From positions 1,237,666-1,301,665 of the forward strand of contig OY729432.1 of NCBI GenBank assembly GCA_963422385.1: a DNA stretch of 64,000 bases, written 5' to 3'. A program made the position numbers and the translations under genes. A model generated the notes under the pieces. The model ran no database searches. It worked only from the letters and a program-made list of their open reading frames with translations, and was not told the DNA's origin. Below, in pieces: positions 16,555 to 53,132 of the stretch (position 1 is the first letter of the stretch; the number at the start of each line of letters is the position of its first letter). Origin of the DNA: Candidatus Binatia bacterium. Lineage in GTDB: Bacteria; Desulfobacterota; Binatia; UBA9968; JAJDTQ01.

Positions 16555-16571
16555 CGGCTGGAGGAAGAGAT

Positions 16572-18949: not shown

Positions 18950-18955
18950 GAGGCG

Positions 18956-19420: not shown

Positions 19421-19534
19421 GAGCCGGTGCATGTCGATATCGGTTTGTGGGAATGCCTGGCGAAAAGCCGAATTTGGTGGCAGCAGTTGGGCGGGCGTAA
19501 TTGGGAAGCCGCATAACAAACGGAGATAAACGGC

Positions 19535-23814: not shown

Positions 23815-23817
23815 GAC

Positions 23818-24657: not shown

Positions 24658-27600
24658 GAAGCGGCCTTTTCTTTCCCATTTTTTTGTGCAGGCGGATAAT
24701 TTTGCATGTAGCGCGTGCTGAGTTCCGCCAGCGCCGCCAGAATGATGCTCCGGCGGCTAGTGTCGGCGGCCTCCAACGAGGCGGCAACACGCTCGATGAG
24801 ATCATTGACGGCAACACGGTCGGCGTCGGCGATGTCGAATTCCTCGAGCAGCGGCACCGGCCGGCCGTCCATACCGATGATGACGGCCATGGCCTGTCGC
24901 TTGTCGGGGCGGCCCTGAACGCGCGCATACGTCTCGGCCCGGAGGAATTTCTGCGCCATGTCGGCAAGCTCGATTGCCGCATGGTCTATATCGGGATCGA
25001 CCCATTCACGCGGCGACTTGTTCGCGGCAAGACTCGCGATCCCTTCGAAACTCTCGTCCGAACCGTCGAACTGCGCCAGTCGGCCGACGAAGGCGTCGAG
25101 CCGGAAATCTCCGGCAAGCCGCCTGATATTCTCGGCGCGCTTGCGCAATTCCACCAGGGACTGCGGAGAGACGTTAGGAACCTGCATCTCCTCCAGCATG
25201 ATATCGCGCAGGCGGTGAAGCATCGACGGATAGGCCATTACCAGTTCTTCCAGGCCTTCGCGGACGCTTACGACGACACGGCGCAAACCGTCTTCGTCTT
25301 CATTGGCAAGCGAAACGTCTTCGCCAAGCGTTTCCGGTATGTCGTCGAACAGGAACCGGTTGGGATCGTGCGCCCGTTTGAACAGATCGCGAATTTTTAC
25401 AGCATTGGATGACAGCCGCATCGTCAGCCCGGTCCATTTGGGAAGCCGGTCGTAGATCCCGACAAGGCCGCGCCCGACATCGATGGGCTCCAGGTGAACA
25501 AGCTCGTTCGCGTCGTCGAGATCGCGGACTACCTGCGCCATACCCGACAACAAGCGGCGTGCAACATCGGTCAGATCCATCCAGCGCAACTGGATGAAGG
25601 TCGGGTCCTTGGCAAGATACTCCACGTCCACGTCGTCGAACTTGGTCCTAAATATGCCATTCCGGTAGACCGCCAGTTTTTTGTGCTGGGACAGAACGAA
25701 TGCTACGGCAAGGATCGGCATGAGACCGTCCTTCACGCCAAAGGGCATCTCGCGCCATAGTTCGAACAGCTCGGATACCGCGACGGTGCGCGAGGAGCGT
25801 TCCTTCACATGGTCGAGCGCGGCAGTCCACAGCGGGGCCAGGTGGCAAGGATCTGCACCATTCGTCGGGGCAACGAATCGCCACCCCTTGCCTTCCCGGG
25901 CATAGAGCCCAGTCGCTTCCAGGACGGATTCGAACAGCCCACCCTCGGCCGGGTACCCTTGGATACCAAGGCGAGCTTCGCCCTCGTTCAGGACCATGCG
26001 GCGCAACAGGGCGTTCTGTGCCGCGATGGCATTGCTTGACGGTTTCTGCCGACTCAGCAATTCGTTATGCAGCCGCGGCGACTTCGCGAAGCGGCGGTCT
26101 GCTAGCTCGGAGGCGATGCCGTTCAGATCGGCCTGCCGCAGGCGTTTGGGCAGGTAGTTTTTCCGGAACCACAGCGCATTGTCGAATGCCTTGTGCAGTT
26201 CGGTTTCAAGCAGGGCCTGCAAGGCCGCAAGGCGAGCGGAGACTTCCCGCCGCGCAACGAAATCGCCCGCGAGTTCCGGATGATCATTGCTGACACTATC
26301 GAGCGCAAACAGCTCCCGCGCTAGGGGCACAACTACCCATGACTTTTTCGAAATCCCGACGACGACGTCCCATGCATCGCTATACCGCGCGGCTTTGCGG
26401 CACAGGTCCTCGGCACAGGCCTCGCTCTCTCCCTCGGTCGGAATCGCCAGCAGGAATTGTCCTATAGCGCCGTTCTCCGGCCCAAGCCTCGTGGCGAATT
26501 CGACGAGGCCACTGATCGGCACGACGTATACGTCGAACCATCTCAGCGCGCCGGTGTCATGATAGTGGCGCTTGGCGAGGATCGGCTGAAGTCCCGCGAC
26601 GGATTTCAACTCGGTGAAATCCACCTCGTCAATCTCGTCGAGCGCGGCCCGCACCGCTCTATCAATATCGAAATCGCTCCCTGCGAAGATGGCGCGTGCG
26701 TCGAGGAATTTCTTGAAGATCGTGAACGACCATGTGTCCAGTTGCGAGAGCACTTTTTCAAGCGCCTTGTCCGATGTACCGTGGAAACAGGTGCGCAGCA
26801 GGTCAAAATTTGCCACGAGGCCCGAGCGTTCCTTGAACAGGTCAATGACGGCGATTGTCTTGAGTAACCCGACATGAAGGGAGTCGCCGCCAATGGATTC
26901 GCATCGTTCGATCGCTTCCGCTGCCAAGGCCCACCGATGTCCGTCCGGCGAAGCGAGGATGGACGGTTCCAGGTTGGCGCGAAGATAGTCCCAAAGCCGG
27001 TCGGGGCCGTACAGTTCGCCGTCCCCGTCATGGTTCAGATAGTCCTGAAATCCGTGCGGTTCGGAGGAATTCAGGAAACCGAATATGCTGCGCTGATTTT
27101 GCCCGAATCGCCGCCGCGATATCGGTCCAAGCAAACAAGCGACAACGGGATGCAGTGGCCAGCATGCTTCCAGCATTGCGGCGAGCCGTGCAACGTCACC
27201 AGCGCGTTCCCGACGTGCGAAACCGGCGACGGCGGACGCGAGCGGGCCGGGCTTCTTTGGACGATAATCACTCTCGATGGCGCGTGAGATCAGGTCGATT
27301 TGCTCTTCAACCGCAGTGTTGACAACGAGGTCGATGAAACGCCCCTGAACTTTCGCCCACTCGTCGCGCATTTCGTGCGAGAGGCGATGGGCGTATTCCT
27401 CGAACGCTTGGTGCAACACGCCGATGACAAGAAAACGCCCCTTGCTTCGCGACGCGGCTTCAGCAAGCTGCTGGAGGATGTAGATGTCGGAGCCGTCCCG
27501 CGCGGCGGCCTCCAGAAACTTGCCCATCTCGTCGATGACCAGGACTAGCCCGCCGTGCGTCTTCGGCCTGGATGCAGCCGCCTCGGTCAGGGTGTCGATC

Positions 27601-28049
27601 AGATTGCTTTCAGTCCAGCCGTCGCGTGGCTGCCGTGCCACGAGTCCTGTTCGCTTCACAGCCTCGCCGATGACCGCGACGGGGTCGTCGCGACGCGCGA
27701 CGACGGGAAGGATGCGCCATCCCTTCGTGCCTGTCGGTAACGCGGTCCAGATCGTTTTCGCCAGATTCTGTCCGAAGACCCCGGCGGCCTCCTTCTGCAA
27801 ACCGGCCTTGCCCCTCAGCAAGGCGCTCAGGGCCACGACGAGGCTCGATTTGCCGCTGCCGTAGGGACCTGTCCATGTGAATGCGCCTTGGCCCGTTTCG
27901 GAGACGTGGCGCGCCATCGTTGCCAGAACATCGGCGGATGACTGCGGACAAATGAATCCTTCAAGGGCGGCGGCGTCACCGAGATCGGCATCAATGCGGA
28001 TCGATCTGAGAAAACGGCGGGCGATCCAGACACGTTCGTTGAGCACCAT
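24654..28049 (-). CDS. sspC: SspC-like large P-loop ATPase (DUF499/BrxC-like)
   Basis: 1131 aa with N-terminal Walker A TGPYGSGKSSL and Walker B LVLVIDEMGKF. ATG 28049 is preceded by GAGGAGG and overlaps the sspB stop (ATGA). Confidence 0.75.
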   Translation of the reverse strand: MVLNERVWIARRFLRSIRIDADLGDAAALEGFICPQSSADVLATMARHVSETGQGAFTWTGPYGSGKSSLVVALSALLRGKAGLQKEAAGVFGQNLAKTIWTALPTGTKGWRILPVVARRDDPVAVIGEAVKRTGLVARQPRDGWTESNLIDTLTEAAASRPKTHGGLVLVIDEMGKFLEAAARDGSDIYILQQLAEAASRSKGRFLVIGVLHQAFEEYAHRLSHEMRDEWAKVQGRFIDLVVNTAVEEQIDLISRAIESDYRPKKPGPLASAVAGFARRERAGDVARLAAMLEACWPLHPVVACLLGPISRRRFGQNQRSIFGFLNSSEPHGFQDYLNHDGDGELYGPDRLWDYLRANLEPSILASPDGHRWALAAEAIERCESIGGDSLHVGLLKTIAVIDLFKERSGLVANFDLLRTCFHGTSDKALEKVLSQLDTWSFTIFKKFLDARAIFAGSDFDIDRAVRAALDEIDEVDFTELKSVAGLQPILAKRHYHDTGALRWFDVYVVPISGLVEFATRLGPENGAIGQFLLAIPTEGESEACAEDLCRKAARYSDAWDVVVGISKKSWVVVPLARELFALDSVSNDHPELAGDFVARREVSARLAALQALLETELHKAFDNALWFRKNYLPKRLRQADLNGIASELADRRFAKSPRLHNELLSRQKPSSNAIAAQNALLRRMVLNEGEARLGIQGYPAEGGLFESVLEATGLYAREGKGWRFVAPTNGADPCHLAPLWTAALDHVKERSSRTVAVSELFELWREMPFGVKDGLMPILAVAFVLSQHKKLAVYRNGIFRTKFDDVDVEYLAKDPTFIQLRWMDLTDVARRLLSGMAQVVRDLDDANELVHLEPIDVGRGLVGIYDRLPKWTGLTMRLSSNAVKIRDLFKRAHDPNRFLFDDIPETLGEDVSLANEDEDGLRRVVVSVREGLEELVMAYPSMLHRLRDIMLEEMQVPNVSPQSLVELRKRAENIRRLAGDFRLDAFVGRLAQFDGSDESFEGIASLAANKSPREWVDPDIDHAAIELADMAQKFLRAETYARVQGRPDKRQAMAVIIGMDGRPVPLLEEFDIADADRVAVNDLIERVAASLEAADTSRRSIILAALAELSTRYMQNYPPAQKNGKEKAAS

Positions 28050-29005
28050 CACGCATCCTCCTCAGCGGGCCCGCCGTAATCGCCTCGAATCCACAACAAG
28101 GCTGCCTCTTTACTGATTTCGACGTTGCGCTCAACATGCTTTACCCCGGCGGTTTCGGTCCAGCGGAGCGCGCCGCCCGTCACGTCTTCGAGCGTCGCCA
28201 AGCGGTCAGCCACATCGTTCTCATCGAAAAGGAACACGCGGCCAGGCCCGCCGGGCGCATGGGCGATGGCCTCGAACGAGAGCGTGGCGACATTCGGAGC
28301 GTAGCGCGACCAGAAGTCGATCAGCGCATAGGTAAAAACAGCATCGCCCAATGTCGTCTTGGGACCTCGCACAAAGCGGAAGCCGTCCTTCCTGCCGATG
28401 GCCTTGATCAGCCCGAGTTCCGTGAGAGGCGACTCAAGCGCGTCGTCGTGCCCGGTCTTGCCGGACAGTTGCCGCGCGACATAGGTGCGAATGAAACATG
28501 CGACGTCATTTCTTATCGTCGTGTTAGCGGGCTGAGGCCAATTACGGTCCTTGGCAAGACGGTCGAGCCTCTTGATTAGCCCGTCCCGCTCGAAGGTGAC
28601 GGCGGGATAGTGGCTGAACGCCCAGAACCACGTCGTCTTCTCCTCGCGGGCCGCCAACTGCCAATGGATCAGCCACAGCGTGGTGGGGTGCTCCATATAC
28701 GGATCAAGGCCTTTCGGGCCGAACAAGAGATCACCGAGTTCCGTCGTTTGAACGGAAGTCGTTTCCGGCTCGGAGATTATTCCGCTGGCTTTCGCCCAAT
28801 GGCGCATCGACGTGACCATGTTCTTGCCGACGCCGAATCGCGCGATGGCGTCTTTGTCCCAACAGGCGGCCCTGTTGCCGGGTCGGTCTTGGGTTTCAGC
28901 GACGCGGTCGTACACCTTCTTCAGCCACCCGTAGCGCAACGGGAAGGTATCGTGGCCTGAGAATTGCGGGATGTAGTCTGTTTGATATAAAGGACCGTGT
29001 GACAT
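28049..29005 (-). CDS. sspB: SspB-like protein (DUF4007-type; proposed nickase of Ssp systems)
   Basis: Start set at ATG 29005 (GAGGGGAG immediately upstream), giving MSHGPLYQTDYIPQFSGHDTFPLRYGWLKK... (318 aa). Position between sspA and sspC, size and N-terminal motif fit SspB; the family call needs HMM confirmation. Confidence 0.68.
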   Translation of the reverse strand: MSHGPLYQTDYIPQFSGHDTFPLRYGWLKKVYDRVAETQDRPGNRAACWDKDAIARFGVGKNMVTSMRHWAKASGIISEPETTSVQTTELGDLLFGPKGLDPYMEHPTTLWLIHWQLAAREEKTTWFWAFSHYPAVTFERDGLIKRLDRLAKDRNWPQPANTTIRNDVACFIRTYVARQLSGKTGHDDALESPLTELGLIKAIGRKDGFRFVRGPKTTLGDAVFTYALIDFWSRYAPNVATLSFEAIAHAPGGPGRVFLFDENDVADRLATLEDVTGGALRWTETAGVKHVERNVEISKEAALLWIRGDYGGPAEEDA

Positions 29006-29159
29006 GCTCCCCTCGGTCACTGGATGATGCCTCCAGTTCGACTGTAGCCGACGAGTCATGCTATGGTCAACAGATACTTGGATGGTGCACCTAGAAGCAC
29101 ACGGTCGCCGGAACCCCGGCAATCAACAAGCCTTTGTGGTTCTAACTCATTGAAGCACA

Positions 29160-30347
29160 ATGAAAATTAGAAACACGATCTACCTTGATCATCAGGCGAC
29201 GACCCCGGTCGATCCGCGTGTTTTGGCCGAAATGACGCCCTATTTCAGCGACTCGTTCGGTAATCCGCACTCGTCGGATCATTGCCTCGGGTGGGAATCT
29301 TCACGCGCCGTCGAGGTCGCCGCCGCGCGAGTCGCACACCTGATCGGCGCGGACGCAAACGAAATCACCTTCACGTCCGGCGCAACCGAGTCGAACAATT
29401 TTGCCCTGCTCGGCCTCGGACACTACGCGGCGTGCGGCAAGCGCCGCCGAATTCTGCTGAGCGCCATCGAGCATAAATGCGTGTTGGCGGTGGGAAGAGT
29501 CCTGGACGAGCGCTACGGGTTCGTCGTCGAGTCGATCCCCGTCGATTGCGAAGGTTTCGTGAAGCTGTCGGCTCTCGAAGCAAAGCTAGACGAAAGTGTT
29601 CTTGCCGTGTCGGTCATGGCAGTGAACAACGAGATCGGAACCATACAGGACATCGAGAGAATCTCGCAGCTCGTAAGAGACTGCGGCGCCCTATTCCATT
29701 GCGATGCGGCGCAAGCGCCTGTTGCAATGAACGTCGAAGGAATTGGAAGGCATGCTGATGTCCTCAGTCTCTCGTCGCACAAGATGTACGGGCCGAAAGG
29801 GATCGGCGTCGTCTATATCGCGCGCGGGTTGCAAGACAGGTTCGAACCCCTGATCTACGGCGGCGGCCAACAGAACGGTTTACGCTCAGGCACCGTGCCC
29901 GTTCCGCTCTGCGTTGGCATGGGGGCTGCAGCAGGTTTACTGGTTGGCGACACCGCCGAGGAAAGGCGCGCGAACCTGAGCCGTCGGCGCGACATGTTCG
30001 TCGAAAAACTGAAGGGCCTGACGTGGCCGGTGGCTGTAAATGGCCCTGGAAATCGCGACCGGCATCCGGGCAACGCGAATGTGCGATTCGCGGGTTTTGC
30101 CGCGCATGACACCTTGAACACGCTTCAACCGCGACTCGCAGCCTCAACGGGTTCTGCTTGCACCTCCGGTATCCCGGAGCCTTCACACGTCTTAAGGGCA
30201 ATTGGTCTAAACACTGACGATGCCGAGTCTTCTATCCGTTTCAGCCTCGGCTTCAGTACAAGTGATGAAGACGTTGAAGAGGCTGTGGGCCTGATTGACG
30301 AGACGTTGGCGAAATTGTCGAAGACCAAGCCGGTGTGCTCAGCCTGA
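29160..30347 (+). CDS. sspA: cysteine desulfurase (IscS/NifS class V; SspA/DndA-like)
   Basis: 395 aa with PLP-lysine motif SSHKMYGPKG and active-site Cys in STGSACTSG. Divergent from sspB across a 154-bp intergenic region. Confidence 0.88.
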   Translation: MKIRNTIYLDHQATTPVDPRVLAEMTPYFSDSFGNPHSSDHCLGWESSRAVEVAAARVAHLIGADANEITFTSGATESNNFALLGLGHYAACGKRRRILLSAIEHKCVLAVGRVLDERYGFVVESIPVDCEGFVKLSALEAKLDESVLAVSVMAVNNEIGTIQDIERISQLVRDCGALFHCDAAQAPVAMNVEGIGRHADVLSLSSHKMYGPKGIGVVYIARGLQDRFEPLIYGGGQQNGLRSGTVPVPLCVGMGAAAGLLVGDTAEERRANLSRRRDMFVEKLKGLTWPVAVNGPGNRDRHPGNANVRFAGFAAHDTLNTLQPRLAASTGSACTSGIPEPSHVLRAIGLNTDDAESSIRFSLGFSTSDEDVEEAVGLIDETLAKLSKTKPVCSA

Positions 30348-40908: not shown

Positions 40909-41727
40909 TCACCGTCCGAACCTCCACGCTCCTCGCCTGCCCAGAAGGCGTGCCAGCAGAGAGACGAAGAAGAGCGCAACAGCGACCATCACGATGGTGC
41001 CGCCGGCGGCGATGTCAAACTGATACGCCAGCACGAGCCCCGCCACACCTGAAAGCGATCCGATCAACGCCGCCAGCAACACCTGCCACCGGAAATTCAA
41101 CGCCCAAAGCGCCGCTATGGCAGCGGGCACCACCAGCAAGGCCTGGATGAGCAACAGGCCCACCAGCCTCACTCCGATGACCACGGTGAGGGCCAGCACC
41201 ACCAGCAGCAGCACGTTGAGAGCCAGAACCCTGTGGCCGTAGGCCGCCGCCACCTCTTCGTCGAACGCGATCAGCAGATGCTCCTTGAAGGTCATCAGCA
41301 TGATCACCATGAGCACCGCACTGACGCCGGCGAGAGCCACGAGCTCGCCGGTGGAGATGGCCAGCACGTTGCCGAAGAGGTAGCTGAAGAGATCCTGTTG
41401 ATAACCGCTCTTCAGGCTGAAGAGGACCACGCCCAAAGCCATGGAGCCCGAGAAGAACACGCCGATGACCGCGTCTTCGCTGATGTTGTCGCTCTGGGTG
41501 ACGAGGGCGATACCCAGCGCCACGGCCACGCCGAAGACCGCGCCGGTCAGCAGGGGATTCCATCCCGCCAGGATGCCGATGGCCACGCCTCCGATGGCGG
41601 AATGGGAGATCCCGACGCCGATGAAGGCCAGGCGGCGCAGCACCACGAAGAAACCCAGGATGCCGCACAGCAGGCCCACCAGGACCGCTGCCGCCAAGGC
41701 GCGCTGCATGAAGGCAAAGTCGAACAT
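40909..41727 (-). CDS. znuB: ABC-3 family metal (Zn/Mn) ABC transporter permease
   Basis: 272 aa, 8-9 TM helices, conserved ...GVGISHSAIGG... of ZnuB/MntB/TroC permeases. Confidence 0.82.
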   Translation of the reverse strand: MFDFAFMQRALAAAVLVGLLCGILGFFVVLRRLAFIGVGISHSAIGGVAIGILAGWNPLLTGAVFGVAVALGIALVTQSDNISEDAVIGVFFSGSMALGVVLFSLKSGYQQDLFSYLFGNVLAISTGELVALAGVSAVLMVIMLMTFKEHLLIAFDEEVAAAYGHRVLALNVLLLVVLALTVVIGVRLVGLLLIQALLVVPAAIAALWALNFRWQVLLAALIGSLSGVAGLVLAYQFDIAAGGTIVMVAVALFFVSLLARLLGRRGAWRFGR

Positions 41728-41772: not shown

Positions 41773-42564
41773 TCACGTCCCATAATAATGGCCCTGTTGC
41801 TCGTGATGGGCGAGCTCGCCACCCAGGAAGTCGAACTCGCAGCGGTAGGCTTCGCGAATGGCGTGGCTGTGGATCACGTCTTCGGCGTTCCCGTGGATGT
41901 GCATACGGCAGTTGATGCAGATCAGCTCATCGGTTTGGCCGGCCATGGCCACGAGATCATGGGACACCGTGACGATGGTCAGGGTCAGGTCGCGGACAAG
42001 CCTGCGAAGCAATCCATAGAACTCATGCTCCGCGGGCAGATCGAGGCCTACCGTGGGCTCGTCGAGCACCAGCAGCCGGGTGCTGGCGCACAAGGCCTGG
42101 GCCAGCATGACCCGGCGCTGCTCACCTCCGGACAACCGGCCCACGGGACGGTCCCTGTGATCCTGCATGCCCACCAGCTCGAGGCTGTCCTCCACCCGCT
42201 GCCAGTCCTTCCGGCCCGGAAACCCGAATGCGCCTAGATGCCGCAGCCGCCCCATTATCACCACGTCACCGACGGTTGCCGGAAAGTCAGCCGCGACACT
42301 CTGCCGTTGCGGGACGTAACCGATGGCGTGAGAGCCTTTCCGGCCCGGCGGGTAGCCGAACACCTCCACCCGCCCGCTCAACGCCGGCACGAGTCCCATG
42401 ATCGTTCGCATGAGCGTGGTCTTGCCGGCCCCGTTGGGGCCGACGATCCCCACGAAACCGCCCTCGTGCACGTCGAAGTTGATGTCGTGCAGCACGCAAC
42501 AGCCGTCCAGCTCCACCGTAACGCCGCTCAAGCCCACGACGACGTTCCGGTCTCCTTCGCTCAA
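41773..42564 (-). CDS. znuC: metal ABC transporter ATP-binding protein
   Basis: Walker A GPNGAGKTTL, signature LSGGEQRR, Walker B LLVLDEP; overlaps the end of znuA. Confidence 0.85.
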   Translation of the reverse strand: MSEGDRNVVVGLSGVTVELDGCCVLHDINFDVHEGGFVGIVGPNGAGKTTLMRTIMGLVPALSGRVEVFGYPPGRKGSHAIGYVPQRQSVAADFPATVGDVVIMGRLRHLGAFGFPGRKDWQRVEDSLELVGMQDHRDRPVGRLSGGEQRRVMLAQALCASTRLLVLDEPTVGLDLPAEHEFYGLLRRLVRDLTLTIVTVSHDLVAMAGQTDELICINCRMHIHGNAEDVIHSHAIREAYRCEFDFLGGELAHHEQQGHYYGT

Positions 42565-43556
42565 TTCTGTTTCCCCTGTAGCGCCCGCCCGAAAGCGCGC
42601 GCGTTGTACAGCATCAGCCCTTCGTAGGTGGAACGCTCCGGATCGCCGGGGTCGCCCAGCGGGTCCACGAGGACGGTCCCGGCACCGAACTCGCCGGCCA
42701 TGGTCTGCGCCACCCGCGGGCTCAATTGCGGTTCCACCAGAATGGCCCGGATCCCCGCGGCCCGAGCGCTGCGCACCAAGTCGGCGACCTCCCTCGGCGT
42801 CGGCTCCTCGCCGCCGAACTCCTGGACTACTGCGACCTCCTCAAGGTCATACCTTTCGGCAAAGTAGCGCCAGGCATCGTGAAAGGCGATGAACTTGCGC
42901 GACTTCGCCTTGCCGAGCTCCCGTCTGATCTGCCCGTCCAATGCCGTCAACCTGTTTCGGAAGTGGTCGCTACGCCTCTGGTAGTAACTCTTGCCGTCCG
43001 GGTCCGCGGCGATGAGATGCTCGACCACGGCCGGGACCACCGCGTCTCTCACCCGGATGGGGTCCAGCCAGAAATGGGGGTCGAACGCTTCGCCTTCCTT
43101 TTCACCGCCCCCCTTGGCAGCCTGTTCCTCGCCGTGATCTTCGTTCTCCCTGACGGCTGCCTTCTCCTCACCGTGTTCCTCGCCGTGATGATGGTCCTCC
43201 CCCTCCAGGGGCTTCAGGTCCGGAACCTTCATGAGAGCCAGGGTCTTGAGGGGGTGGGATGCCGCCCCCAGGAGCCTTTCCGACCACGCGTCGAAGCCTC
43301 CGCCCACGACGACAAAGAGCCGGGCGCGCGAAACCTTCCTTAAATCGCTCGGCACCGGCTCGAAAGTATGCGGGCTCGCGCCCGGCGGCACCAGTGAATC
43401 CACTTTGACGCGCTCACCGCCCAACTCGCCAACGATATAGGTCACGGGAATCACGCTGGTCACCACGCCAAGGGGCTGTCCGCTTGCCAGTGCCGGGGCG
43501 GCACCGATCCAACAGCTTGCGATGACCGTGAGCACAAGGCTTCCCAGTCTCTTCAT
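42561..43556 (-). CDS. znuA: metal ABC transporter substrate-binding protein (ZnuA/TroA family) with His-rich loop
   Basis: Signal peptide MKRLGSLVLTVIASCWIGAAPALA. Cluster-9 SBP pattern and a His/Glu/Asp-rich loop (EDHHHGEEHGEEKAAVRENEDHGEE) typical of zinc-binding ZnuA. The start lies in a 21-bp tandem duplication (alternative start 43577). Confidence 0.82.
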   Translation of the reverse strand: MKRLGSLVLTVIASCWIGAAPALASGQPLGVVTSVIPVTYIVGELGGERVKVDSLVPPGASPHTFEPVPSDLRKVSRARLFVVVGGGFDAWSERLLGAASHPLKTLALMKVPDLKPLEGEDHHHGEEHGEEKAAVRENEDHGEEQAAKGGGEKEGEAFDPHFWLDPIRVRDAVVPAVVEHLIAADPDGKSYYQRRSDHFRNRLTALDGQIRRELGKAKSRKFIAFHDAWRYFAERYDLEEVAVVQEFGGEEPTPREVADLVRSARAAGIRAILVEPQLSPRVAQTMAGEFGAGTVLVDPLGDPGDPERSTYEGLMLYNARAFGRALQGKQN

Positions 43557-43595
43557 TGCGTCATCCTCCTGAATCATTGCGTCATCCTCCTGAAT
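43554..43595. repeat. perfect 21-bp tandem duplication (x2) covering the SD plus ATG of znuA
   Basis: cattgcgtcatcctcctgaat repeated head-to-tail. On the coding strand attcaggaggatgacgcaATG x2, giving MKRLGSL... or MIQEDDAMKRLGSL... Confidence 0.9.
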
Positions 43596-43597
43596 CT

Positions 43598-44224
43598 TCA
43601 GTCTGCCGGATCCCTTTCGAGCGCCCGCAGATCCTTCAACAGCACGTCGGGATCCGGAGCGGATCCGAAGTAGGCAAAGCGCATGTGGCCGTCCCCATCC
43701 GCCACCACGGTAAGCGTCGTGTGCTCGATGAGCCCCCGTGCCAGCCGCCGCACGCTCACCCCGAACTCCTGCCACACCGGGGCCAGCTCCCGGGCCTCGC
43801 CCGTGAGCCACGACCAGCGGACGGCGTCCGCTTTGTGCCGCCGGCTGTAGGCCTTCAGCACCTTCGGCGTATCGACCTCGGGATCCGTGGTGATGGAGAG
43901 GAAGCGGATGTCCCTGGCCTCCGCGGGTTTCATGTGCTCTCGGACGATCTTGAGGCTCGCGGTCAGCAGCGGACAGACGTCCGGGCACGATGTGTACATG
44001 AAGTTGATCACCACCGGCTTGCCCCTGAGTTTCCGGAACGCCACGCGCTTGCCGTTCTGGTCGGTGAGGACGAAGCTGCCGATGAGGACGTTCATCTCGC
44101 GTCTTTCCGCGAACTTGACCTTGAGGATGGACTTGTGGGTGAGTGCGTCCGCCCCCGGCATGAACAGGACCGCCAGCGCCAGCACCGTAACTCCCAGCGT
44201 CCTCGAGAAAAGAACCCCCCTCAT
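43598..44224 (-). CDS. SCO1/SenC-family copper chaperone (thioredoxin-like)
   Basis: 208 aa with N-terminal TM/signal and CPDVCP metal-binding motif. Confidence 0.8.
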   Translation of the reverse strand: MRGVLFSRTLGVTVLALAVLFMPGADALTHKSILKVKFAERREMNVLIGSFVLTDQNGKRVAFRKLRGKPVVINFMYTSCPDVCPLLTASLKIVREHMKPAEARDIRFLSITTDPEVDTPKVLKAYSRRHKADAVRWSWLTGEARELAPVWQEFGVSVRRLARGLIEHTTLTVVADGDGHMRFAYFGSAPDPDVLLKDLRALERDPAD

Positions 44225-45713: not shown

Positions 45714-46388
45714 TCACTGCACGTAAATCTTCCTGGCGGCTTCCAGGCCAAGGACGACCTGGTCTGTCTGGTCTTCGTCCACCCGGAGGCTAATGGTACC
45801 CAGCGACGGGGCGACGTCATCGACCATGATCGTCGATCCGGGACGGACCTTGTGATCGTAGAGGAACGAAAGCAGCCGCTCGTCGCGCACCCCGGTCTCG
45901 GTGATGCAGCGGAAGATGACCTCGGTGCCCGCTTCCACCGTATTCAGGGGGTTCCACTCCCGGCGCGGAGACGGCTGTCCCTTTACGGGTATGGGATTGC
46001 CGTGGGGGCAGGTGGAGGGATTGTCGAGGATCGCGCTCAGGCGTTCCTCCACCACCGGCGATATCGCGTGCTCCAGGTGGTGCGCCTCCTGGTGGGCCGT
46101 GACCCAGTCCAGCCCCAACAGGTCCGTCAGCAGCCGCTCTGTCAGAAAGTGCCGGCGCAGGATGGCCTCGGCGACCTCACGGCCCTTGAGGGTCAGGTAG
46201 ATGTTCTTGCGACGCTCCACCCTGACGAACTCTTCCTTCTCGAGCCGCCGCAGGGCGCTGAACATGGTGGAGGGCGTCACGCCGATCTCTTCCGCCACCC
46301 GCGCCGCGATGACCTGGTCGCTTTCCTCGGCCAGACTGTAGATGGCCTTCAGGTAGTCTTCGGTCGCTTCCGAGCGTTTTACGGCCAT
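45714..46388 (-). CDS. DtxR/MntR/IdeR-family metal-dependent transcriptional regulator with C-terminal FeoA/SH3-like domain
   Basis: N-terminal HTH (EDYLKAIYSL...), metal-site residues and C-terminal SH3-like domain; 224 aa. Confidence 0.85.
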   Translation of the reverse strand: MAVKRSEATEDYLKAIYSLAEESDQVIAARVAEEIGVTPSTMFSALRRLEKEEFVRVERRKNIYLTLKGREVAEAILRRHFLTERLLTDLLGLDWVTAHQEAHHLEHAISPVVEERLSAILDNPSTCPHGNPIPVKGQPSPRREWNPLNTVEAGTEVIFRCITETGVRDERLLSFLYDHKVRPGSTIMVDDVAPSLGTISLRVDEDQTDQVVLGLEAARKIYVQ

Positions 46389-46422: not shown

Positions 46423-46917
46423 TCACGCGCCGCCTTCCGTGCCGCCGTCCTTGTAAATCTGTTGAGCCAGGTAGTTCTCCCGGCCTACCTGCTGCATCAG
46501 GTTGAGCTGCGCCTCGATCCAGTCCACGTGACCCTCCTCGTCTGCCAGAATCTGCTCCAGGAGCTCGCGGCTCACGTGGTCTCCCGCTTCATGGCATGTC
46601 GCGATAACGGCGTGCAGCACCTTGATGGCGGCCTCTTCCAGCCCGAGATCGTTCTCCAACTGTTCCTTGACGGCCTTGCCCACCGTTATCTTGTCATAAC
46701 CGGCAACGTTGGGGACGCCGTCCAGCAGCAGGATGCGGTTGATGATCCGGTCCGCGTGCTGCATCTCCTCGATGGATTCCCTGAAGAGGGCGTCATCCAG
46801 GACCTGATACCCCCAATTGCGGCACATCCGCGAATGCATGAAGTATTGATTGATCCCGGTCAGCTCTTTCCGCAGCACGTCGTTGATCGCCTTGAGCACC
46901 CTCGGATCGCCTTTCAT
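46423..46917 (-). CDS. bfr: bacterioferritin
   Basis: MKGDPRVLKAINDVLRKELTGINQYFMHSRMCRNWGY... with ferroxidase-centre Glu/His and heme-ligand Met positions; 164 aa. Confidence 0.9.
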   Translation of the reverse strand: MKGDPRVLKAINDVLRKELTGINQYFMHSRMCRNWGYQVLDDALFRESIEEMQHADRIINRILLLDGVPNVAGYDKITVGKAVKEQLENDLGLEEAAIKVLHAVIATCHEAGDHVSRELLEQILADEEGHVDWIEAQLNLMQQVGRENYLAQQIYKDGGTEGGA

Positions 46918-47052: not shown

Positions 47053-48087
47053 CTAGGGAATGCCTACACGGTCGAAGATCCTGAGCGCCGTCGCCCGGTT
47101 CCGGGCGATCTTGACCATGTCGATGGTGTCCGCCTTGAACTTGCCCCAGGACTCCACGATGCCGGACCAGGGCACGCCGGGCTTCACGGGATACTCGAAG
47201 TTCTGCTCGGCGTACATCTTCTGTGCGAGGTCATCGCTCAGGAACTCAAGCAGCTTGACCGCGTTGTCCTTCCGCCCCGAGTGCCTGGTGACGCCGGCGC
47301 CGCTGATGTTCATGTGGGCACCGCGGTCCTTCTGGTTGGGGAAGAACACGTTGACGGCCTCCGCCCAGGCGATCTGCTTCTTGTTGGTGAGCATCTTGCC
47401 CATGTAGTAGGAGTTTCCGAGGGAGATGTCGCATTCGCCCGCGAAGATGGCCTTGACCTGGGCTCGGTCGTTGCCCTGAGGCTTGCGCGCCAGGTTGGCA
47501 TTGAGGCCCTTGGCCCACGCCTCGGCCTTTTTCTCGCCGTGATGAGCCACCAGCGAAGCAAGCAGCGCCACGTTGTAGACGTGTTGCGACGAGCGGATAC
47601 AGATGCGGCCCTTCCACTTGGGAGTGGCGAGGTCCTCGTAGGTCGAAAGCTCGCCCGCCTTCACCCTTTCCCTGGAGGCGTAGACGATGCGGGCGCGCCT
47701 GGTGAGCCCGAACCACAGACCCGAGGGGTCCCGGTCATGCGCCGGAACGTTGGCGGTGAGCTTCCCGCTCTTCACCGGTTGCAGCACCCCGGCTTCCACG
47801 GCGTCGTTGATCCGGCCGATGTCCACGGTCAGGACCACGTCGGCGGGGCTGTTCCTGCCTTCCTTCCGCAGGCGCGTGATCATCCCCTTGGGCGCGAACA
47901 CCACGTTGGTCCTGATCCCGGTCTGCTGGGTGAAGGCGTTCAGCATAGGCTTGATGAGGAACGGCTGCCGGTACGAGTAGATATTGACTTCCCCGTCCGC
48001 CAAGGCGTTTGCCGCAATGCCCACGGACAGGGCAGCGGCCGCCACCACGGACACGACAAAACTGCTCCCCGACATTCTTGCAGTCAT
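47053..48087 (-). CDS. Fe3+-type ABC transporter periplasmic substrate-binding protein (FbpA/FutA-like), orphan
   Basis: Family-1 SBP with signal peptide ...FVVSVVAAAALSVGIAANALA. The start region holds a 30-bp tandem duplication giving in-frame ATGs at 48075, 48087 and further upstream. Start set at 48087 (GGGGGAG 7 nt upstream). Confidence 0.75.
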   Translation of the reverse strand: MTARMSGSSFVVSVVAAAALSVGIAANALADGEVNIYSYRQPFLIKPMLNAFTQQTGIRTNVVFAPKGMITRLRKEGRNSPADVVLTVDIGRINDAVEAGVLQPVKSGKLTANVPAHDRDPSGLWFGLTRRARIVYASRERVKAGELSTYEDLATPKWKGRICIRSSQHVYNVALLASLVAHHGEKKAEAWAKGLNANLARKPQGNDRAQVKAIFAGECDISLGNSYYMGKMLTNKKQIAWAEAVNVFFPNQKDRGAHMNISGAGVTRHSGRKDNAVKLLEFLSDDLAQKMYAEQNFEYPVKPGVPWSGIVESWGKFKADTIDMVKIARNRATALRIFDRVGIP

Positions 48088-48134
48088 TGTCATGCTCCCC
48101 CTTGTTCTTGCAGTCATTGTCATGCTCCCCCTTG
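48075..48134. repeat. perfect 30-bp tandem duplication (x2) covering the SD plus ATGs of the Fe3+ SBP gene
   Basis: ttcttgcagtcattgtcatgctcccccttg x2. On the coding strand caaGGGGGAGcATGacaATGactgcaaga x2, an in-frame 10-aa duplication TRGSMTMTAR at the N-terminus. Confidence 0.9.
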
Positions 48135-48182
48135 GAGGGTTACTTCGGCTACATACTTCATTGATCACGGTAATGCAATACC

Positions 48183-48201
48183 TAAAGTTAGGCTAACACA
48201 A
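48183..48201. promoter_or_regulatory. IdeR/DtxR-type iron box (TAAAGTTAGGCTAACACAA), 15 of 19 positions matching consensus TTAGGTTAGGCTAACCTAA
   Basis: Perfect palindromic core GTTAGGCTAAC in the divergent promoter region between the Fe3+ SBP gene and the fused ABC exporter. A DtxR-family regulator gene lies 2 kb away. Confidence 0.55.
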
Positions 48202-48472
48202 TTTTTTTCTTTTGCCCGCAAACAGGATGCCGGCTGATCAAGGGGCCCTGTACGCCGGCCAGCCTTGTATTCGCGGCCATGACCTTCTAATGTCACGGGA
48301 CTGGTGTTGTGTCTCACAAGCAGGGTTAAGAAGATGCTCGGGATTTTTTGTTGCCGGCAAGGCGACGAGCACTGGCCAGTACCACGGGCGGAGGAGCAAC
48401 GCAGCCGACGACAAAAAGACCGGCGGATTTGTAAACCTGCTTGTGAGACGCAACACCGGGATCGGTGAATTC

Positions 48473-51400
48473 ATGTACCTGGACCGACGACTGCTGACCC
48501 ACACCCGCGGGGTGCGCGTGCGCATTGCCGCGGCCGCCGTTCTCGGCCTGTGCGCGGTGGCCGCCGGCATCTCGCGCCTGGCGTTTTCCGGGCTGATCAT
48601 CGCCGGGGTCCTCACCGGCGCCGCTTTCTCGTCGCTTGTCCCCTACCTGGCGGCCGTCGCCGGCTTCATCGCGCTACGCGCGCTGTTCCAGTATCTGCGG
48701 GATATGGTGAGTCAGGAGACCGCCGCCCGGGTGAAGGAAGGGCTGCACGACAAGCTATACCGGCACGCCCTCGACCTGGGTCCCGGGCACTTCAACCAGG
48801 AGCGAACGGGTGACGTGCTGGTCTCGCTGGGCGAGGGGGTGGAGCGGCTCCAGGTCTTCTACGGCCAGTTCCTGCCGCAGATGGTGGTGGCCGGGGTGGC
48901 GCCGGTGCTGATCTTCTTCCTGATGGCGTCCTTCGACCTAGTCATCGGGCTCATCTTCGTGGTCTTCGCCCTGCTGACGCTGGCGGCGACGCCGCTGTTC
49001 CTGCTCTTCACCGAAGAGAGCAGCCGGCGCCGGCGCACCTCCTACGGCGCCTTCGGCGCCGATTTCCTCGACGGTATCCAGGGCATCGCCACCCTCAAGA
49101 TCTTCGGCCGGAGCCGCAGCCAGGGGGAGCGCCTCGCGGACCGGGCGCGCCATCTCTACCGCACCACCATGGGCGTCCTGGCGGTCAACATGGTCTCCGT
49201 CGGCGTCACTACCTTCGGCATCCTCGGCGGCACCGCCTGCGCCCTGGGCTGGGGCGCCCTCCAGGTCAGCGCCGGCGACCTGGAGGTGCGCTCGCTGATC
49301 GTGATCCTGATCATGGGCGCGGAGATCTTCCGTCCCATGCGGGAGCTGATGATCCTGTACCACCAGGGCATCAATGCCATGGCTGCGGCCGAGGGCATCT
49401 TCGAGCTGCTGGAGGCACCGGTGATGGTGCGGGAGCCGGCGGCGGCCGAGGCAGCGGCCGGGACCTCCTTCGAGCCCGCCGTCCGTTTCGAGGACGTGAG
49501 CTTCGCATACCAGGAGGGCAGCCGCCCGGCCCTCCGGGACGTTTTCCTCGAGCTTCGCGCGGGCGAGAAGCTCGGCGTCGTGGGCCCCAGCGGCGCCGGC
49601 AAGTCCACGCTGGTCTCGCTGATGCTGCGCTTCGCCGACCCCCGGCAGGGTCGCGTCTTGCTGGGCGGCCAGGACATCCGCGCCATCCCCCTGCACGTCC
49701 TGCGCCGGCACGTCGCCGTGGTGGCCCAGGACATGTACCTCTTCTACGGCACCATCGCCGACAACCTGCGCATGGCCAAACCCGAGGCCACCCCGGAGGA
49801 GATCGCGGCGGCGGCCCGGGCGGCCAACATCCACGAGTTCATCGCCGGGCTGCCCGAAGGGTACGACACCGTGGTGGGCGAGCGCGGCGTGCGCCTCTCG
49901 GGCGGCGAGCGCCAGCGCATCGCCATCGCCCGGGCCATTCTCAAGGACGCCCCGATCCTGGTGCTGGACGAGGCGCTGTCGAGCGTGGACGCCCGGAGCG
50001 AGGCGGTGATCAACCAGGCGCTGCGCAAGCTCATGGAGGGGCGCACCACCCTGATCATCGCGCACCGGCTGTCGAGCGTCATCCACGCGGACCGCATCCT
50101 GGTGCTGGAACGGGGTCAGGTGGTGGAAACCGGCGGCCACGGCGCGCTGCTGGAGAGCGGCGGCACCTACGCCCGGCTCATGGCCGCCCAGGCCCAGGCC
50201 GGCGACGCCGAGGCGATGGCGGAGCGCGCGGCCCCGGCCGCGGCGGCCGAGCCCGAGGAAGCCGCCGAGACGCCCGCCACGCGAACCGCACGCGCGCGGG
50301 CGCCACTGGCCGCCCTCACGGTGCTGCGGCGGCTGGCGGAACTGGTACGGCCCTTCCGCCGGAAGCTCGCGGTATCGTTCTCCGCCGGGGTGCTCTTTCA
50401 GGCTTCGGTGGTGGGCGTCGGCGCGGCCGGCGCGCTCCTGGTGAGCCAGTTGATACGCGGCGAAGACATCGCGTTCCACCTGCTCCTGCTGGGTTCCATG
50501 GTGGGGCTGGCTTCCGTGCTTTCCTGGGCCGATTGCTGGCTGCCCCACGACCTCGCCTACCAGCTCCTGGCGGAGATGCGCATCGACTTCTACGACACAC
50601 TGGACCCGCTGGCGCCGGCCTATCTGACCCGCCGCCGCTCCGGCGATCTCGTGAGCATCGCCGGCGCCGACGTGGAGACGGTGGAGCTCTTCTTCGCCCA
50701 TACCATCACCCCGGCCTTCATCGCCGTAGTGGTTCCCGCCGGGATCCTGACGGTGCTGGGCCTGGTGGGCTGGCCGCTGATGCTGGCCCTGGCCCCCTTT
50801 CTGGTGCTGCTGGCGCTGTCGCCGTTCCTGGCGCAGAAGCGTTCGGACCGGCTGGGCGGAGCGGTACGCCGGGAGCTTGGGCACCTGAACGCCCACCTGG
50901 TGGACAGCATCCAGGGCATGCGCGAGGTGGTCTCCTTCGGCCACGAGAAGCGCCAGGTCGCCGCGGTGTTGGCCAACAGCCTGCGGCTCGCCAAGGCCCA
51001 GCTCGCGTTCCACAAGGACCAAGCCTTTCAGGCCAGCTTCAACGAGGCAGTGACCGGCATCGGCGCCCTGGCGGTGCTGAGCACGGGGGTCTGGCTCGTG
51101 AGCCAGCTCGAGATGGACCGGGCGCTGCTGCCGCTGGCCAGCGTGCTGGCGCTCCTGGCCTTCGGGCCGGTGACCGACGTCGCCCGCACGGTCAAGGAGC
51201 TGATGGAGACGCTGGAGTCGGGCCGCCGGGTGTTCGCGGTCAAGGACGAGCCCGTGCCGGTGCGGGACGGCGCCGGGGTGCCGGCGCTCGTCGGCAACGG
51301 CCACACCCCGCCGGCCATCCGCTTCGACCACGTGAACTTCGGCTACGACGCCGGCAACGGCTTGGCGCTGCGGGACGTGTGCCTCGACGTGGAGCCGGGC

Positions 51401-52096
51401 CAGACCGTGGCGCTGGTGGGTCCCTCGGGCGCCGGCAAGACCACCTGCGCTCACTTGCTGCTGCGTTTCTGGGACCCCGCCAACGGCGCGGTAACGCTGG
51501 CCGGCCGGGACCTGCGGGAGTTCACCCTGGACCACCTCCGGGCCCAGGTCTCGCTGGTGTCCCAGGACACCTATCTGTTCAACACCACGCTGCGCGACAA
51601 CATCCGTCTGGGCCGGCCCGAGGCCTCCCGGGAGGAGGTGGAGGAAGCCGCCGGCCTGGCCCACATCCATCGTTTCATCAGCCGCCTGCCCTCGGGTTAC
51701 GACACGATGATCGGCGAGCGCGGCGTGCGGCTTTCCGGGGGCCAGCGGCAGCGCATCGCCATCGCCCGGGCGTTGCTCAAGGACGCCCCCGTGCTGATAC
51801 TCGACGAGGCCACCTCACATCTCGACGCCATCAACGAGGAGCTGATCCACCAGGCGGTGGACCGGCTGACGCAGGGCCGCACCACGTTGGTCATCGCCCA
51901 CCGGCTGTCCACCATCCGCGACGCGGACCGGATCGTCGTGCTGGATTCCGGCGACATCGCCGAGCAGGGAACCCACGACGACCTGCTCCGGGCCAACGGC
52001 CTCTATGCGGACCTGGTGATGACCCAGCTCGTCAGCGCCAACGCGCCGGCGCGGATGGCGGAGGACCAGGAGCCTGTCCGAGTGAGCGAATCGTAG
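48473..52096 (+). CDS. fused ABC exporter with two TMD-NBD halves (CydDC-like type I exporter)
   Basis: Two 6-TM domains each followed by an NBD (Walker A GPSGAGKST / GPSGAGKTT, signatures LSGGERQR / LSGGQRQR, Walker B ILVLDEA / LILDEAT). Start ATG 48473 is uncertain (weak SD); the 300-bp upstream region is AT-richer. Confidence 0.78.
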   Translation: MYLDRRLLTHTRGVRVRIAAAAVLGLCAVAAGISRLAFSGLIIAGVLTGAAFSSLVPYLAAVAGFIALRALFQYLRDMVSQETAARVKEGLHDKLYRHALDLGPGHFNQERTGDVLVSLGEGVERLQVFYGQFLPQMVVAGVAPVLIFFLMASFDLVIGLIFVVFALLTLAATPLFLLFTEESSRRRRTSYGAFGADFLDGIQGIATLKIFGRSRSQGERLADRARHLYRTTMGVLAVNMVSVGVTTFGILGGTACALGWGALQVSAGDLEVRSLIVILIMGAEIFRPMRELMILYHQGINAMAAAEGIFELLEAPVMVREPAAAEAAAGTSFEPAVRFEDVSFAYQEGSRPALRDVFLELRAGEKLGVVGPSGAGKSTLVSLMLRFADPRQGRVLLGGQDIRAIPLHVLRRHVAVVAQDMYLFYGTIADNLRMAKPEATPEEIAAAARAANIHEFIAGLPEGYDTVVGERGVRLSGGERQRIAIARAILKDAPILVLDEALSSVDARSEAVINQALRKLMEGRTTLIIAHRLSSVIHADRILVLERGQVVETGGHGALLESGGTYARLMAAQAQAGDAEAMAERAAPAAAAEPEEAAETPATRTARARAPLAALTVLRRLAELVRPFRRKLAVSFSAGVLFQASVVGVGAAGALLVSQLIRGEDIAFHLLLLGSMVGLASVLSWADCWLPHDLAYQLLAEMRIDFYDTLDPLAPAYLTRRRSGDLVSIAGADVETVELFFAHTITPAFIAVVVPAGILTVLGLVGWPLMLALAPFLVLLALSPFLAQKRSDRLGGAVRRELGHLNAHLVDSIQGMREVVSFGHEKRQVAAVLANSLRLAKAQLAFHKDQAFQASFNEAVTGIGALAVLSTGVWLVSQLEMDRALLPLASVLALLAFGPVTDVARTVKELMETLESGRRVFAVKDEPVPVRDGAGVPALVGNGHTPPAIRFDHVNFGYDAGNGLALRDVCLDVEPGQTVALVGPSGAGKTTCAHLLLRFWDPANGAVTLAGRDLREFTLDHLRAQVSLVSQDTYLFNTTLRDNIRLGRPEASREEVEEAAGLAHIHRFISRLPSGYDTMIGERGVRLSGGQRQRIAIARALLKDAPVLILDEATSHLDAINEELIHQAVDRLTQGRTTLVIAHRLSTIRDADRIVVLDSGDIAEQGTHDDLLRANGLYADLVMTQLVSANAPARMAEDQEPVRVSES

Positions 52097-52121
52097 CGAG
52101 AGGCATGGAAATGGAGGCCAT

Positions 52122-53132
52122 TTGCGGACGGTTTCAAGGAGAATACAGGAGGGGCGGAGTGTCGCGGGCATGGCCCTGGCGCTGCTGCTCGGACTGATAC
52201 TGGCGCTTCCAGCCCGGCTCTCGGCGGCGCCCCTGCGGGTGGTCGCCACCGTGGCGCCGATCACCAGTATCGTGGAGAACGTCGCCGGGGATCGAGCGCA
52301 GGTGACCGGCATCGTCCCGGAAGGGGTAAACTCCCACACTTTCCGGCCGGTTCCGTCGGACGCCAGGACCATGGCGAGGGCGGATCTCATCATCCTGAAC
52401 GGCCTTGATCTGGAGATCCCCACCCTCAAGCTCGCCCGCGCCAACAAGCGGCCGGATACGCCGATCCTGCTGCTGGCCGACCTCACCGTCACCGAGCGGG
52501 ACTACGTCTTCGACTTCAGCTTTCCCCGGGACCGGGGGCATCCCAACCCGCACCTGTGGCCCGATCCGGTGCACGTGATGAACTACGCGCGTCTCGTGCG
52601 CGACGCCTTGGCCGGGGCGGACCCCGAGGGGCGGACGGTGTATCAGGCCAACACCCAGCGCTACTTGGCGAAGCTCAGGGCGCTGGACGGGGCCATTGCC
52701 GCGGCCGTGGCTACCGTGCCGCCGGGGAACCGACGGCTCCTCACCTATCACGACTCGTGGCCCTATTTCGCCAAACGCTACGGCTTCAGCGTCATCGGCG
52801 CGGTGCAGCCCTCCAGCTTCTCCGAACCGAGCCCGCGGGAAGTGGCCCGGCTCATCGATCAATTGAACCGGGCACGGGTGCCGGCGGTATTCGGCTCCGA
52901 GGTGTTTCCCAGCCCGGTCCTTCAACAGATCGCCCGGGAAGCGACGACGACATTCGTCGAGAGCCTTAGAGACGATGACCTCCCCGGGGAGTCCGGCGAC
53001 CCGATCCATTCCTACACCGGCATGATGCTCATGAACATCCGGACCATCGTCTCGGCATTGGGCGGCTCGCCCGACGCCCTGAAGACCGTGGACCCGGCGC
53101 CGGTGGCCGGCCATCACGCGCGCTACCGGTAG
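52122..53132 (+). CDS. metal ABC transporter substrate-binding protein (TroA/ZnuA/MntC family, no His-rich loop)
   Basis: Signal peptide ...MALALLLGLILALPARLSAAPL; cluster-9 SBP pattern. TTG 52122 with GGAGG 4 nt upstream; ATG 52170 is an alternative. Confidence 0.75.
   Translation: MRTVSRRIQEGRSVAGMALALLLGLILALPARLSAAPLRVVATVAPITSIVENVAGDRAQVTGIVPEGVNSHTFRPVPSDARTMARADLIILNGLDLEIPTLKLARANKRPDTPILLLADLTVTERDYVFDFSFPRDRGHPNPHLWPDPVHVMNYARLVRDALAGADPEGRTVYQANTQRYLAKLRALDGAIAAAVATVPPGNRRLLTYHDSWPYFAKRYGFSVIGAVQPSSFSEPSPREVARLIDQLNRARVPAVFGSEVFPSPVLQQIAREATTTFVESLRDDDLPGESGDPIHSYTGMMLMNIRTIVSALGGSPDALKTVDPAPVAGHHARYR

Follow-up and report, generated by a model that had tools for sequence, protein, structure and literature searches.

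The 64-kb stretch of the genome of an uncultured Candidatus Binatia bacterium analysed here (contig OY729432.1; hereinafter, the window) harbors two exact short tandem duplications, located at the starts of two genes coding for periplasmic metal-binding proteins, i.e., a znuA gene (znuA-1) and an fbpA-like gene. Each of them doubles the ribosome-binding site (RBS) of the gene, including its Shine–Dalgarno (SD) sequence, and duplications of the same kind have been found at genes of the same two families in related genomes. These events are real and non-random; each of them is a simple mutation, and the pattern is reproducible across genomes. As for their meaning, we assign a probability of about 50% to the idea that spontaneous duplications of the SD region, harmless to the mature protein, arise recurrently at these genes and are kept because they tune, and probably raise, translation initiation.

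The first duplication spans positions 43554–43595 and consists of two exact copies of a 21-bp unit, which reads cattgcgtcatcctcctgaat on the forward strand and ATTCAGGAGGATGACGCAATG in the orientation of the gene (minus strand); at period 21, the run of matching positions is 23 nt long (43553–43596). The unit ATTCAGGAGGATGACGCAATG comprises the SD AGGAGG, followed by an 8-nt spacer and by ATG. In the distal copy (43595..43575, minus strand), the SD occupies positions 43591–43586 and the in-frame ATG positions 43577–43575; in the proximal copy (43574..43554, minus strand), the SD is found at 43570–43565 and the ancestral ATG at 43556–43554. The two ATGs share the same frame, 21 nt apart, and the distal reading is MIQEDDA-MKRLGS... 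A previous inspection of the letters of the window (the sequence-only reading) had proposed a duplicated unit containing AGGAGG and ATG, with two in-frame starts and a MIQEDDA extension; both motifs are indeed there, on the reverse complement of the forward strand, and the extension is borne out by the conceptual translation. The znuA-1 gene (42561..43556, minus strand) encodes 331 aa from the proximal ATG and 338 aa from the distal one (43577), the latter matching the deposited protein P0121, which begins there. Its product, which carries a His-rich loop, matches PF01297 (ZnuA) with E = 4.6e-73 and 246.4 bits (the cut-off being 29) over profile positions 1–260 of 263, and the gene shares an operon with ABC_tran and ABC-3 genes, as expected for a ZnuA/TroA-type periplasmic metal-binding protein. 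The latter two are znuC (ATP-binding cassette (ABC) ATPase; 41773–42564, minus strand) and znuB (ABC-3 permease; 40909–41727, minus strand), both downstream of znuA-1 and assigned by Pfam. Directly upstream lies a SCO1/SenC gene (43598..44224, minus strand), whose TGA stop codon (43600–43598) is placed 2 nt ahead of the distal unit; the ancestral spacing from the SCO1 stop to the znuA start was only 20 nt.

The second duplication (48075–48134), which the sequence-only reading had also located at another metal-uptake binding-protein gene, is an exact 30-bp repeat in two copies (unit CAAGGGGGAGCATGACAATGACTGCAAGAA), and its run of matching positions, exactly 30, does not go beyond the unit. The distal copy (48105..48134, minus strand) contains the SD GGGGGAG at 48131–48125 and ATGs at 48123–48121 and 48117–48115, and the proximal copy (48075..48104, minus strand) has the SD at 48101–48095 and ATGs at 48093–48091 and 48087–48085. 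The fbpA-like gene (47053..48087, minus strand) encodes an Fe(III) ABC-transporter periplasmic binding protein of 344 aa, whose deposited version (P0001) starts at the second ATG of the proximal copy, 7 nt from the SD; from the distal starts, the signal peptide is longer by 10–12 residues. The protein scores above the Pfam cut-offs of SBP_bac_6, 8, 1, and 11, and the names of its homologues ("iron(III) transport system substrate-binding protein", "Fe(3+) ABC transporter substrate-binding protein") are those of FbpA/AfuA-like proteins. From a practical viewpoint, the duplications create an ambiguity in start-site annotation, and within the same deposited genome the choice is inconsistent, as it falls on the distal copy for znuA (P0121, 43577) and on the proximal one for fbpA (P0001, 48087).

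An exhaustive scan of the 64 kb for units of 12 bp or more revealed these two repeats as the only exact tandem duplications. With Tandem Repeats Finder, the fbpA repeat ranks first (score 120) and the znuA-1 repeat second (88), the next best score being 52. The window contains about 50 genes, three of which code for metal binding proteins, and duplicated starts are found in 2/3 of the latter and in 0/47 of the others (Fisher p = 0.0024). The third metal binding-protein gene, the paralog znuA-2 (52086..53132, plus strand), has no duplication and represents an internal control.

The two sites were compared with those of relatives (loci L001–L003, L011–L015, and L034–L044), the closest genomes being metagenome-assembled genomes of Candidatus Binatia. 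In L002 (OY282432.1, about 90% nucleotide identity), the fbpA alignment shows a clean gap of 30 columns, corresponding to one copy at the identical place; the znuA genes of L003 and L012 exhibit the same SD-N8-ATG architecture once only, and L001 is likewise single-copy. Three further genomes (L042–L044) have single copies as well. The comparison with related genomes, suggested in the sequence-only reading as a check, thus gave a single copy at both window sites; because of this, the duplications are the derived state. They are also very recent, judging from the 0 differences in 51 nt between the duplicated copies versus a divergence of about 10% in the orthologous flanks (were the duplications of the same age as the split, the probability of zero differences would be about 0.006). 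A metagenome scan with the ZnuA alignment retrieved relatives with identities of at most 62%, with zero start duplications.

Besides the window, duplications have been disclosed in several other genomes. In L002, the second znuA paralog of OY282432.1 carries the copies TACAGGAGAAACGAAATGAA and TACAGGAGAAACGAAAATGAA (20 + 21 bp), which include SD and ATG, with two in-frame ATGs at a distance of 21 nt; one base within an A-run distinguishes the copies, and the sister locus L001 (97% identical over 2.9 kb) has one unit only. The fbpA gene of L035 has two 19-bp copies, TTGTGAAGGGAGACCAAAC and TTGTGAAGGGAGATCAAAC, which contain the SD only and end 1 nt before the ATG, and its paralog in the same genome (L036) is single-copy. 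In L034, a znuA paralog has two copies of the 10-bp unit CGGGAAGGAG, with the SD only, and fbpA contains a 12-bp unit in two copies at 10011–10035, entirely coding (codons 5–12, VGKAVGKA). At the protein level, the P0160/P0164 ZnuA lineage begins with MKKPGR|MKRLGV, i.e., the start codon and the first codons in a diverged form; this N-terminus looks as if 18 nt (the start codon and the five codons after it) had been duplicated at an earlier time and had since diverged. The distance between Met1 and the VVTS motif is 30 residues in about 75 ZnuA orthologue clusters, except for the window (37) and the P0160/P0164 lineage (36). Since unit sequences and boundaries differ each time, these are independent events. 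Every long event takes in the SD, and the element common to the events is the SD/RBS rather than the ATG or the N-terminal extension; the emphasis that the sequence-only reading had put on two initiation codons needs to be revised, since in two of the independent events (L035 and L034) the SD is doubled without any ATG. In each of the two paralog pairs, the copy with the duplication is the relocated one (L035 is flanked by transposases, and L002 has a truncated SCO1 upstream), which is compatible with the compensation of a poorer expression context (n = 2).

The preference for binding-protein genes was confirmed by counting the gene starts that carry a near-exact duplication of 18 bp or more. 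In all the Binatia loci, which had been selected for carrying these genes, such duplications were present at 4/29 binding-protein starts and at 0/~255 other starts (p = 9e-5), the counts of other starts being approximate where gene calls were absent; once the discovery window was excluded, the figures were 2/26 and 0/~208 (p = 0.012). For the six loci whose genes had been called, the threshold was 9 bp (one mismatch at most) within -45..+30 of a start, and duplications were then present at 2/11 binding-protein starts versus 3/87 others; the sole duplication of at least 18 bp was the one at fbpA. The further long near-exact repeats of these loci are only in-frame 21-bp or 48-bp repeats of the ZnuA His-rich loop. 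The claim that recurrence goes beyond chance is hence backed both by this enrichment and by the independent events at the same two families in relatives.

The possibility that each site has one true copy, and that the second is an artefact of assembly or consensus calling, was also considered. It is true that the window comes from a metagenome-assembled genome, where it is part of a contig of 3,949,999 bp, and that the one-base difference between the L002 copies lies in an A-run, a typical position of long-read errors. However, random errors would not repeatedly strike the SD in just these two families, with different unit sequences, across four separate assemblies obtained from different samples; moreover, the example of the P0160/P0164 lineage is diverged, hence old, and the contig names of the relatives (ctg6941c, ctg125739_128x_c) suggest, from their naming style, high-coverage assemblies of accurate long reads. 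An artefact appears, on the whole, very improbable.

In pathogens, simple-sequence contingency loci are found in genes for iron acquisition, such as the CCAA repeats of the Haemophilus hgp genes and the poly-G tracts of hmbR and hpuA in Neisseria. As in those systems, the Binatia repeats are located at the 5' end of metal-uptake genes, their copy number varies among close relatives, and the events are recurrent and independent. It might then be asked whether they represent a programmed, reversible contingency switch, in which the number of RBS copies (one, two, or more) flips often within populations and works as a translational rheostat. The copy number does vary between close relatives and between paralogs of one genome, which is a feature of phase-variable contingency loci; the identical copies are compatible with frequent gain and loss, and iron-uptake genes are classical contingency loci in pathogens. 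Nonetheless, only one or two copies were found and arrays were never observed, while unit sequence, length, and boundaries vary at each occurrence, with no conserved repeat tract; in addition, the units that contain an ATG (21, 21, and 30 bp) preserve the frame, those without it belong to the 5' untranslated region (UTR), and no ON/OFF frameshift is produced. Such a switch is thus unlikely. The same features separate the Binatia units from the pathogen loci: they are 10–30 bp long, unique to each site, present in one or two copies, and in frame or non-coding, without any frameshift switch-off, and would act, if at all, on the RBS. The pathogen loci alter the expression of uptake components; the duplications of Binatia would do the same.

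The way in which the duplications arise was addressed by inspecting their junctions. The sequence-only reading had suggested a recurrent slippage mechanism; at the five events examined, the junction microhomology is 2, 0, 0, 0, and 1 nt, versus about 0.67 nt at random junctions. Because microhomology stays at this chance level of 0–2 nt, slipped-strand (repeat-guided) mispairing is unsupported, and no positive evidence for it has emerged. The origin would rather be a non-homologous short duplication, for which the fill-in and ligation of staggered nicks or breaks, or a homology-independent template switching, are the candidate routes. The events are 10, 19, 21, 21, and 30 bp long, and their copies abut directly.

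Tandem copies without microhomology also recall target-site duplications, and transposase genes flank the fbpA copy of L035; one might hence imagine that the repeats are footprints left by an RBS-targeting mobile element after its insertion and excision. The five lengths are, however, not the fixed length of one transposase, zero residual element sequence is found between the copies, and bacterial insertion sequences are unusual in excising while retaining both target copies. A mobile element is, in our opinion, very unlikely as the source of these repeats.

A more serious alternative is that the 5' ends of metal-regulated genes under strong induction form a local mutational hotspot, and that the duplications are its neutral by-products, harmless and without any effect on expression. 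Possible causes might be polymerase pausing at translation starts, conflicts between replication and transcription, or nicks lying close together on opposite strands that are filled in and ligated. Microhomology-free junctions are what is expected from staggered-break fill-in rather than from slippage, and the events are sporadic and young, in agreement with a rapid gain and loss. Other small duplications occur nearby in the cluster (the 21-bp repeats of the His-rich loop in two and four copies, the start of orf67 in L034, and codons 5–12 of the L034 fbpA), and the cluster is structurally plastic in the relatives, with transposases, toxin–antitoxin insertions, and segmental duplications. On the other hand, the adjoining long intergenic DNA (the divergent region of about 300 bp between fbpA and the ABC transporter) is devoid of such duplications, all the long events include the SD, and none has been found at other genes of the same operons or at those of other exported proteins (SCO1 twice, CtaG, and VKOR). 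We consider a neutral hotspot somewhat improbable; if it were the correct explanation, the microhomology-free junctions would point to an uncharacterised process of short duplication at the 5' ends of induced genes.

According to the explanation that we favour, i.e., that of duplications retained for their effect on initiation, it is the binding protein that an ABC importer needs in excess under metal scarcity, and extra initiation on its cistron would be retained by selection. A second RBS would alter, and most likely raise, initiation on this cistron, by adding a second loading or standby site. The duplication would also keep one RBS or more clear of local mRNA folding, or of ribosomes that terminate on the preceding gene; two identical copies would compete for the same pairing partners, leaving one of them free, and in the case of znuA an intact RBS is placed 21 nt further from the SCO1 stop and could escape terminating ribosomes. 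The downstream copy keeps SD, ATG, and gene intact, and any extension from the upstream start would be confined to the 5' UTR or to the signal peptide, which is cleaved off; since the mature protein would be unaltered, the duplications would be tolerated in exported binding proteins. The net charge of the signal-peptide n-region is +2 (proximal start) and -1 (distal start) for znuA, +1 and +3 for fbpA, and +2 from either start for the L002 znuA, a mixed picture, from which the extension itself has no consistent direction.

In order to have a proxy of RBS accessibility, the predicted cost of opening the region -20..+15 around the start was calculated with a thermodynamic mRNA model for the reconstructed single-copy allele, for the observed allele, and for 20 controls with a shuffled extra copy. 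At the proximal RBS of the window fbpA, the predicted cost falls from 20.8 to 7.7 kcal/mol (shuffled control, 18.9 ± 2.0), at that of the L002 znuA from 11.6 to 3.4 (6.0 ± 2.0), at that of the L035 fbpA from 7.8 to 5.2 (8.6 ± 1.4), and at that of the window znuA from 13.8 to 9.1 (10.0 ± 2.4), while at the L034 znuA paralog it passes from 17.4 to 17.7 (18.3 ± 2.0). The predicted opening energy thus drops in four out of five events, with a clear departure from the shuffled control only at the window fbpA, where a predicted hairpin of -25 kcal/mol pairs the start codons with codons 8–13.

Some observations do not agree with a selective advantage of this kind and, together with the choice of the loci mentioned above, weigh against it. 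The effect on RNA opening is not general, since the window znuA does no better than with a shuffled insert and at L034 the effect is absent; the occluding hairpin of fbpA lacks conservation in the relatives, RNAalifold giving it a covariation term of about 0, and its z-score as a single sequence is only -2.2. The distal znuA start gives an acidic n-region (-1 versus +2), which is expected to be exported worse. Nine out of the 11 fbpA starts of the sampled relatives have no duplication, and among the approximately 75 ZnuA orthologue clusters the same is true for all but two lineages; given that most relatives are unduplicated, any advantage must be conditional or transient. Lastly, the direction of the effect on expression is one that we infer.

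The proposed effect can be placed beside other known systems. A close parallel is offered by ribosome standby sites and by the tandem or dual RBSs designed in translation engineering, in that a second SD located upstream can raise the local availability of the 30S subunit and bypass the occlusion of the RBS; the competition between copies predicted by the RNA-opening model would follow the same logic. The difference is that those arrangements are designed or ancient, whereas the Binatia ones arise de novo by duplication and are polymorphic. The presence of two equally good SD-ATG sites in frame also recalls the alternative in-frame starts that yield two N-terminal isoforms, but here the mature protein is the same after cleavage of the signal peptide, and two of the recurrent events lack any ATG. 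Finally, the mutations belong to the same class as those underlying adaptive amplification, i.e., spontaneous and reversible tandem duplications. Adaptive duplication and amplification raise expression, and in the cases described so far the duplicated segment, of kb to Mb, contains entire genes or captures a promoter (PMC4868123, PMC6614815); in Binatia, by contrast, only about 20–30 bp, the RBS itself, are doubled. No natural precedent for the doubling of the RBS alone was found in the literature searched, the two papers just cited (PMC4868123, PMC6614815) being concerned with gene-scale duplications.

If RBS doubling is indeed recurrent and selected, it would represent a new class of very small adaptive structural variants for metal-uptake proteins, acting on translation initiation and not on transcription or on the reading frame. 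In that case, the cleavage of the signal peptide would make secreted proteins a "free" zone for such changes. Variants of this type escape analyses based on gene content and single-nucleotide polymorphisms, and gene callers usually hide them. In a broader form, the hypothesis would be that in Binatia, and perhaps in other bacteria, the gain and loss of short, non-homologous tandem duplications of the RBS provide a fast and reversible translational rheostat for periplasmic metal-binding proteins, a contingency mechanism that would be cost-free thanks to signal-peptide cleavage and would act on initiation instead of the reading frame; we consider this generalization doubtful and advance it very tentatively.

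As regards the genomic context, a DtxR-family regulator with a FeoA domain (45714–46388, minus strand) and a ferritin (46423–46917, minus strand), both identified by Pfam, lie between znuA-1 and fbpA, so that the regulator, the ferritin, and the two duplicated genes jointly form a metal-homeostasis cluster. A UbiD gene (Pfam) is also present on the minus strand, upstream of the SCO1-znuABC block, and a fused ABC transporter (48197–52096) adjoins znuA-2. A conserved block upstream of fbpA and outside the duplicated unit (48180..48201, minus strand; TGTGTTAGCCTAACTTTAGG on the gene strand) resembles, by eye, the DtxR/IdeR iron-box consensus (TTAGGTTAGCCTAACCTAA). It is located about 75–95 nt upstream of fbpA, in the same position in L002 and in L034–L044 (in L043 it reads TTAGGTTAACCTAACTTTA, then TATTGCAT), and every genome examined has, near fbpA, a gene for a DtxR-family regulator whose C-terminal domain is FeoA. 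On the basis of this iron-box-like block, fbpA is likely to be under iron regulation.

Other sequence features were searched for in the same region. No Rfam family matched the window at the gathering score, i.e., no known riboswitch or leader is present in the 5' UTRs; a scan for promoters and terminators in the 43–49 kb interval found nothing, and the GC skew of the window gave no usable signal of the direction of replication. No inverted repeats occur at the boundaries of the duplications, the only ones nearby being GGATCC-type palindromes inside SCO1 and 6-nt matches. A motif similar to repetitive extragenic palindromic (REP) sequences, GGGAATGACG, found near the znuA-2 paralogs of relatives, was dismissed as a feature of the window, where it is not enriched (8 matches versus 6.8 expected). 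In the relatives, arrays of a REP-like motif, GCGGGAATGACGG(AG), with a period of about 20–22 nt, either precede or overlap the starts of the second ZnuA paralog (L044, about 6100–6190 and 18960–19053; L036, about 6096–6190; L040, 13381–13428), some of them beside the palindrome ATTCCCGC-TTTC-GCGGGAAT.

The ZnuA His-rich loop contains exact in-frame tandem repeats of variable copy number (L001, 10616–10658; L002, 10639–10723; L012, 10402–10536). The repeat is 21 bp long in two copies in L001 and in four copies in its paralog L002 (EQEHHGH units), and 48 bp long in 2.8 copies in L012; the length of the ZnuA orthologues ranges from 310 to 414 aa, mostly due to this loop. The locus L002 is a segmental copy of znuABC, 2.9 kb long and 97% identical, placed near fbpA after a 59-bp SCO1 fragment. 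Just upstream of both znuA copies of OY282432.1, a relic of a znuA 3' end (..NYERLMPYNVRAFERALQEKRK) can be recognized (L001, 10050–10164; L002, 9982–10187), from which it follows that the present SD of these genes derives from an old znuA/znuC junction. In L034, a 15-bp unit is present in two copies (one mismatch) at 4797–4826, across the start of a 67-aa open reading frame (ORF) between znuA and the ABC ATPase gene, and a 10-bp unit in 2.2 copies occurs at 9628–9649, 23 nt upstream of the fused ABC transporter.

As to the relatives, their metal-homeostasis cluster is a hotspot of rearrangements. Two DDE transposases flank the extra fbpA of L035 (11208–15603), HigB/HTH_3 modules are found at differing places in L040 (14003–14507), L042 (13900–14668), and L044, and PIN/HTH_17 modules are inserted in L041 (2658–3688) and L043 (1802–2832). 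In L044, HTH_17 is accompanied by a short ORF without assignment, and the rearranged sites of this locus are 2808–3463 and 11929–12538. The partner genes of fbpA (FecCD and ABC_tran) are present, truncated, or absent, depending on the relative.

Far from the two duplicated genes, the window also includes a defence island with a low GC content (about 0.58–0.60; 14266–30347). A link between the duplications and the Ssp nickase/phosphorothioation functions of this island was considered and dropped, no supporting evidence having been found. The island harbors a DNA phosphorothioation module, composed of SspA (29154–30347, plus strand), SspB (28049–29122, minus strand), SspC (24654–28061, minus strand), and SspD (23818–24756, minus strand), together with a PbeA-like gene (14266–16554), a PbeC/DndD-like gene (16613–18949), and unassigned ORFs, including one for a HATPase protein (19517–21907).

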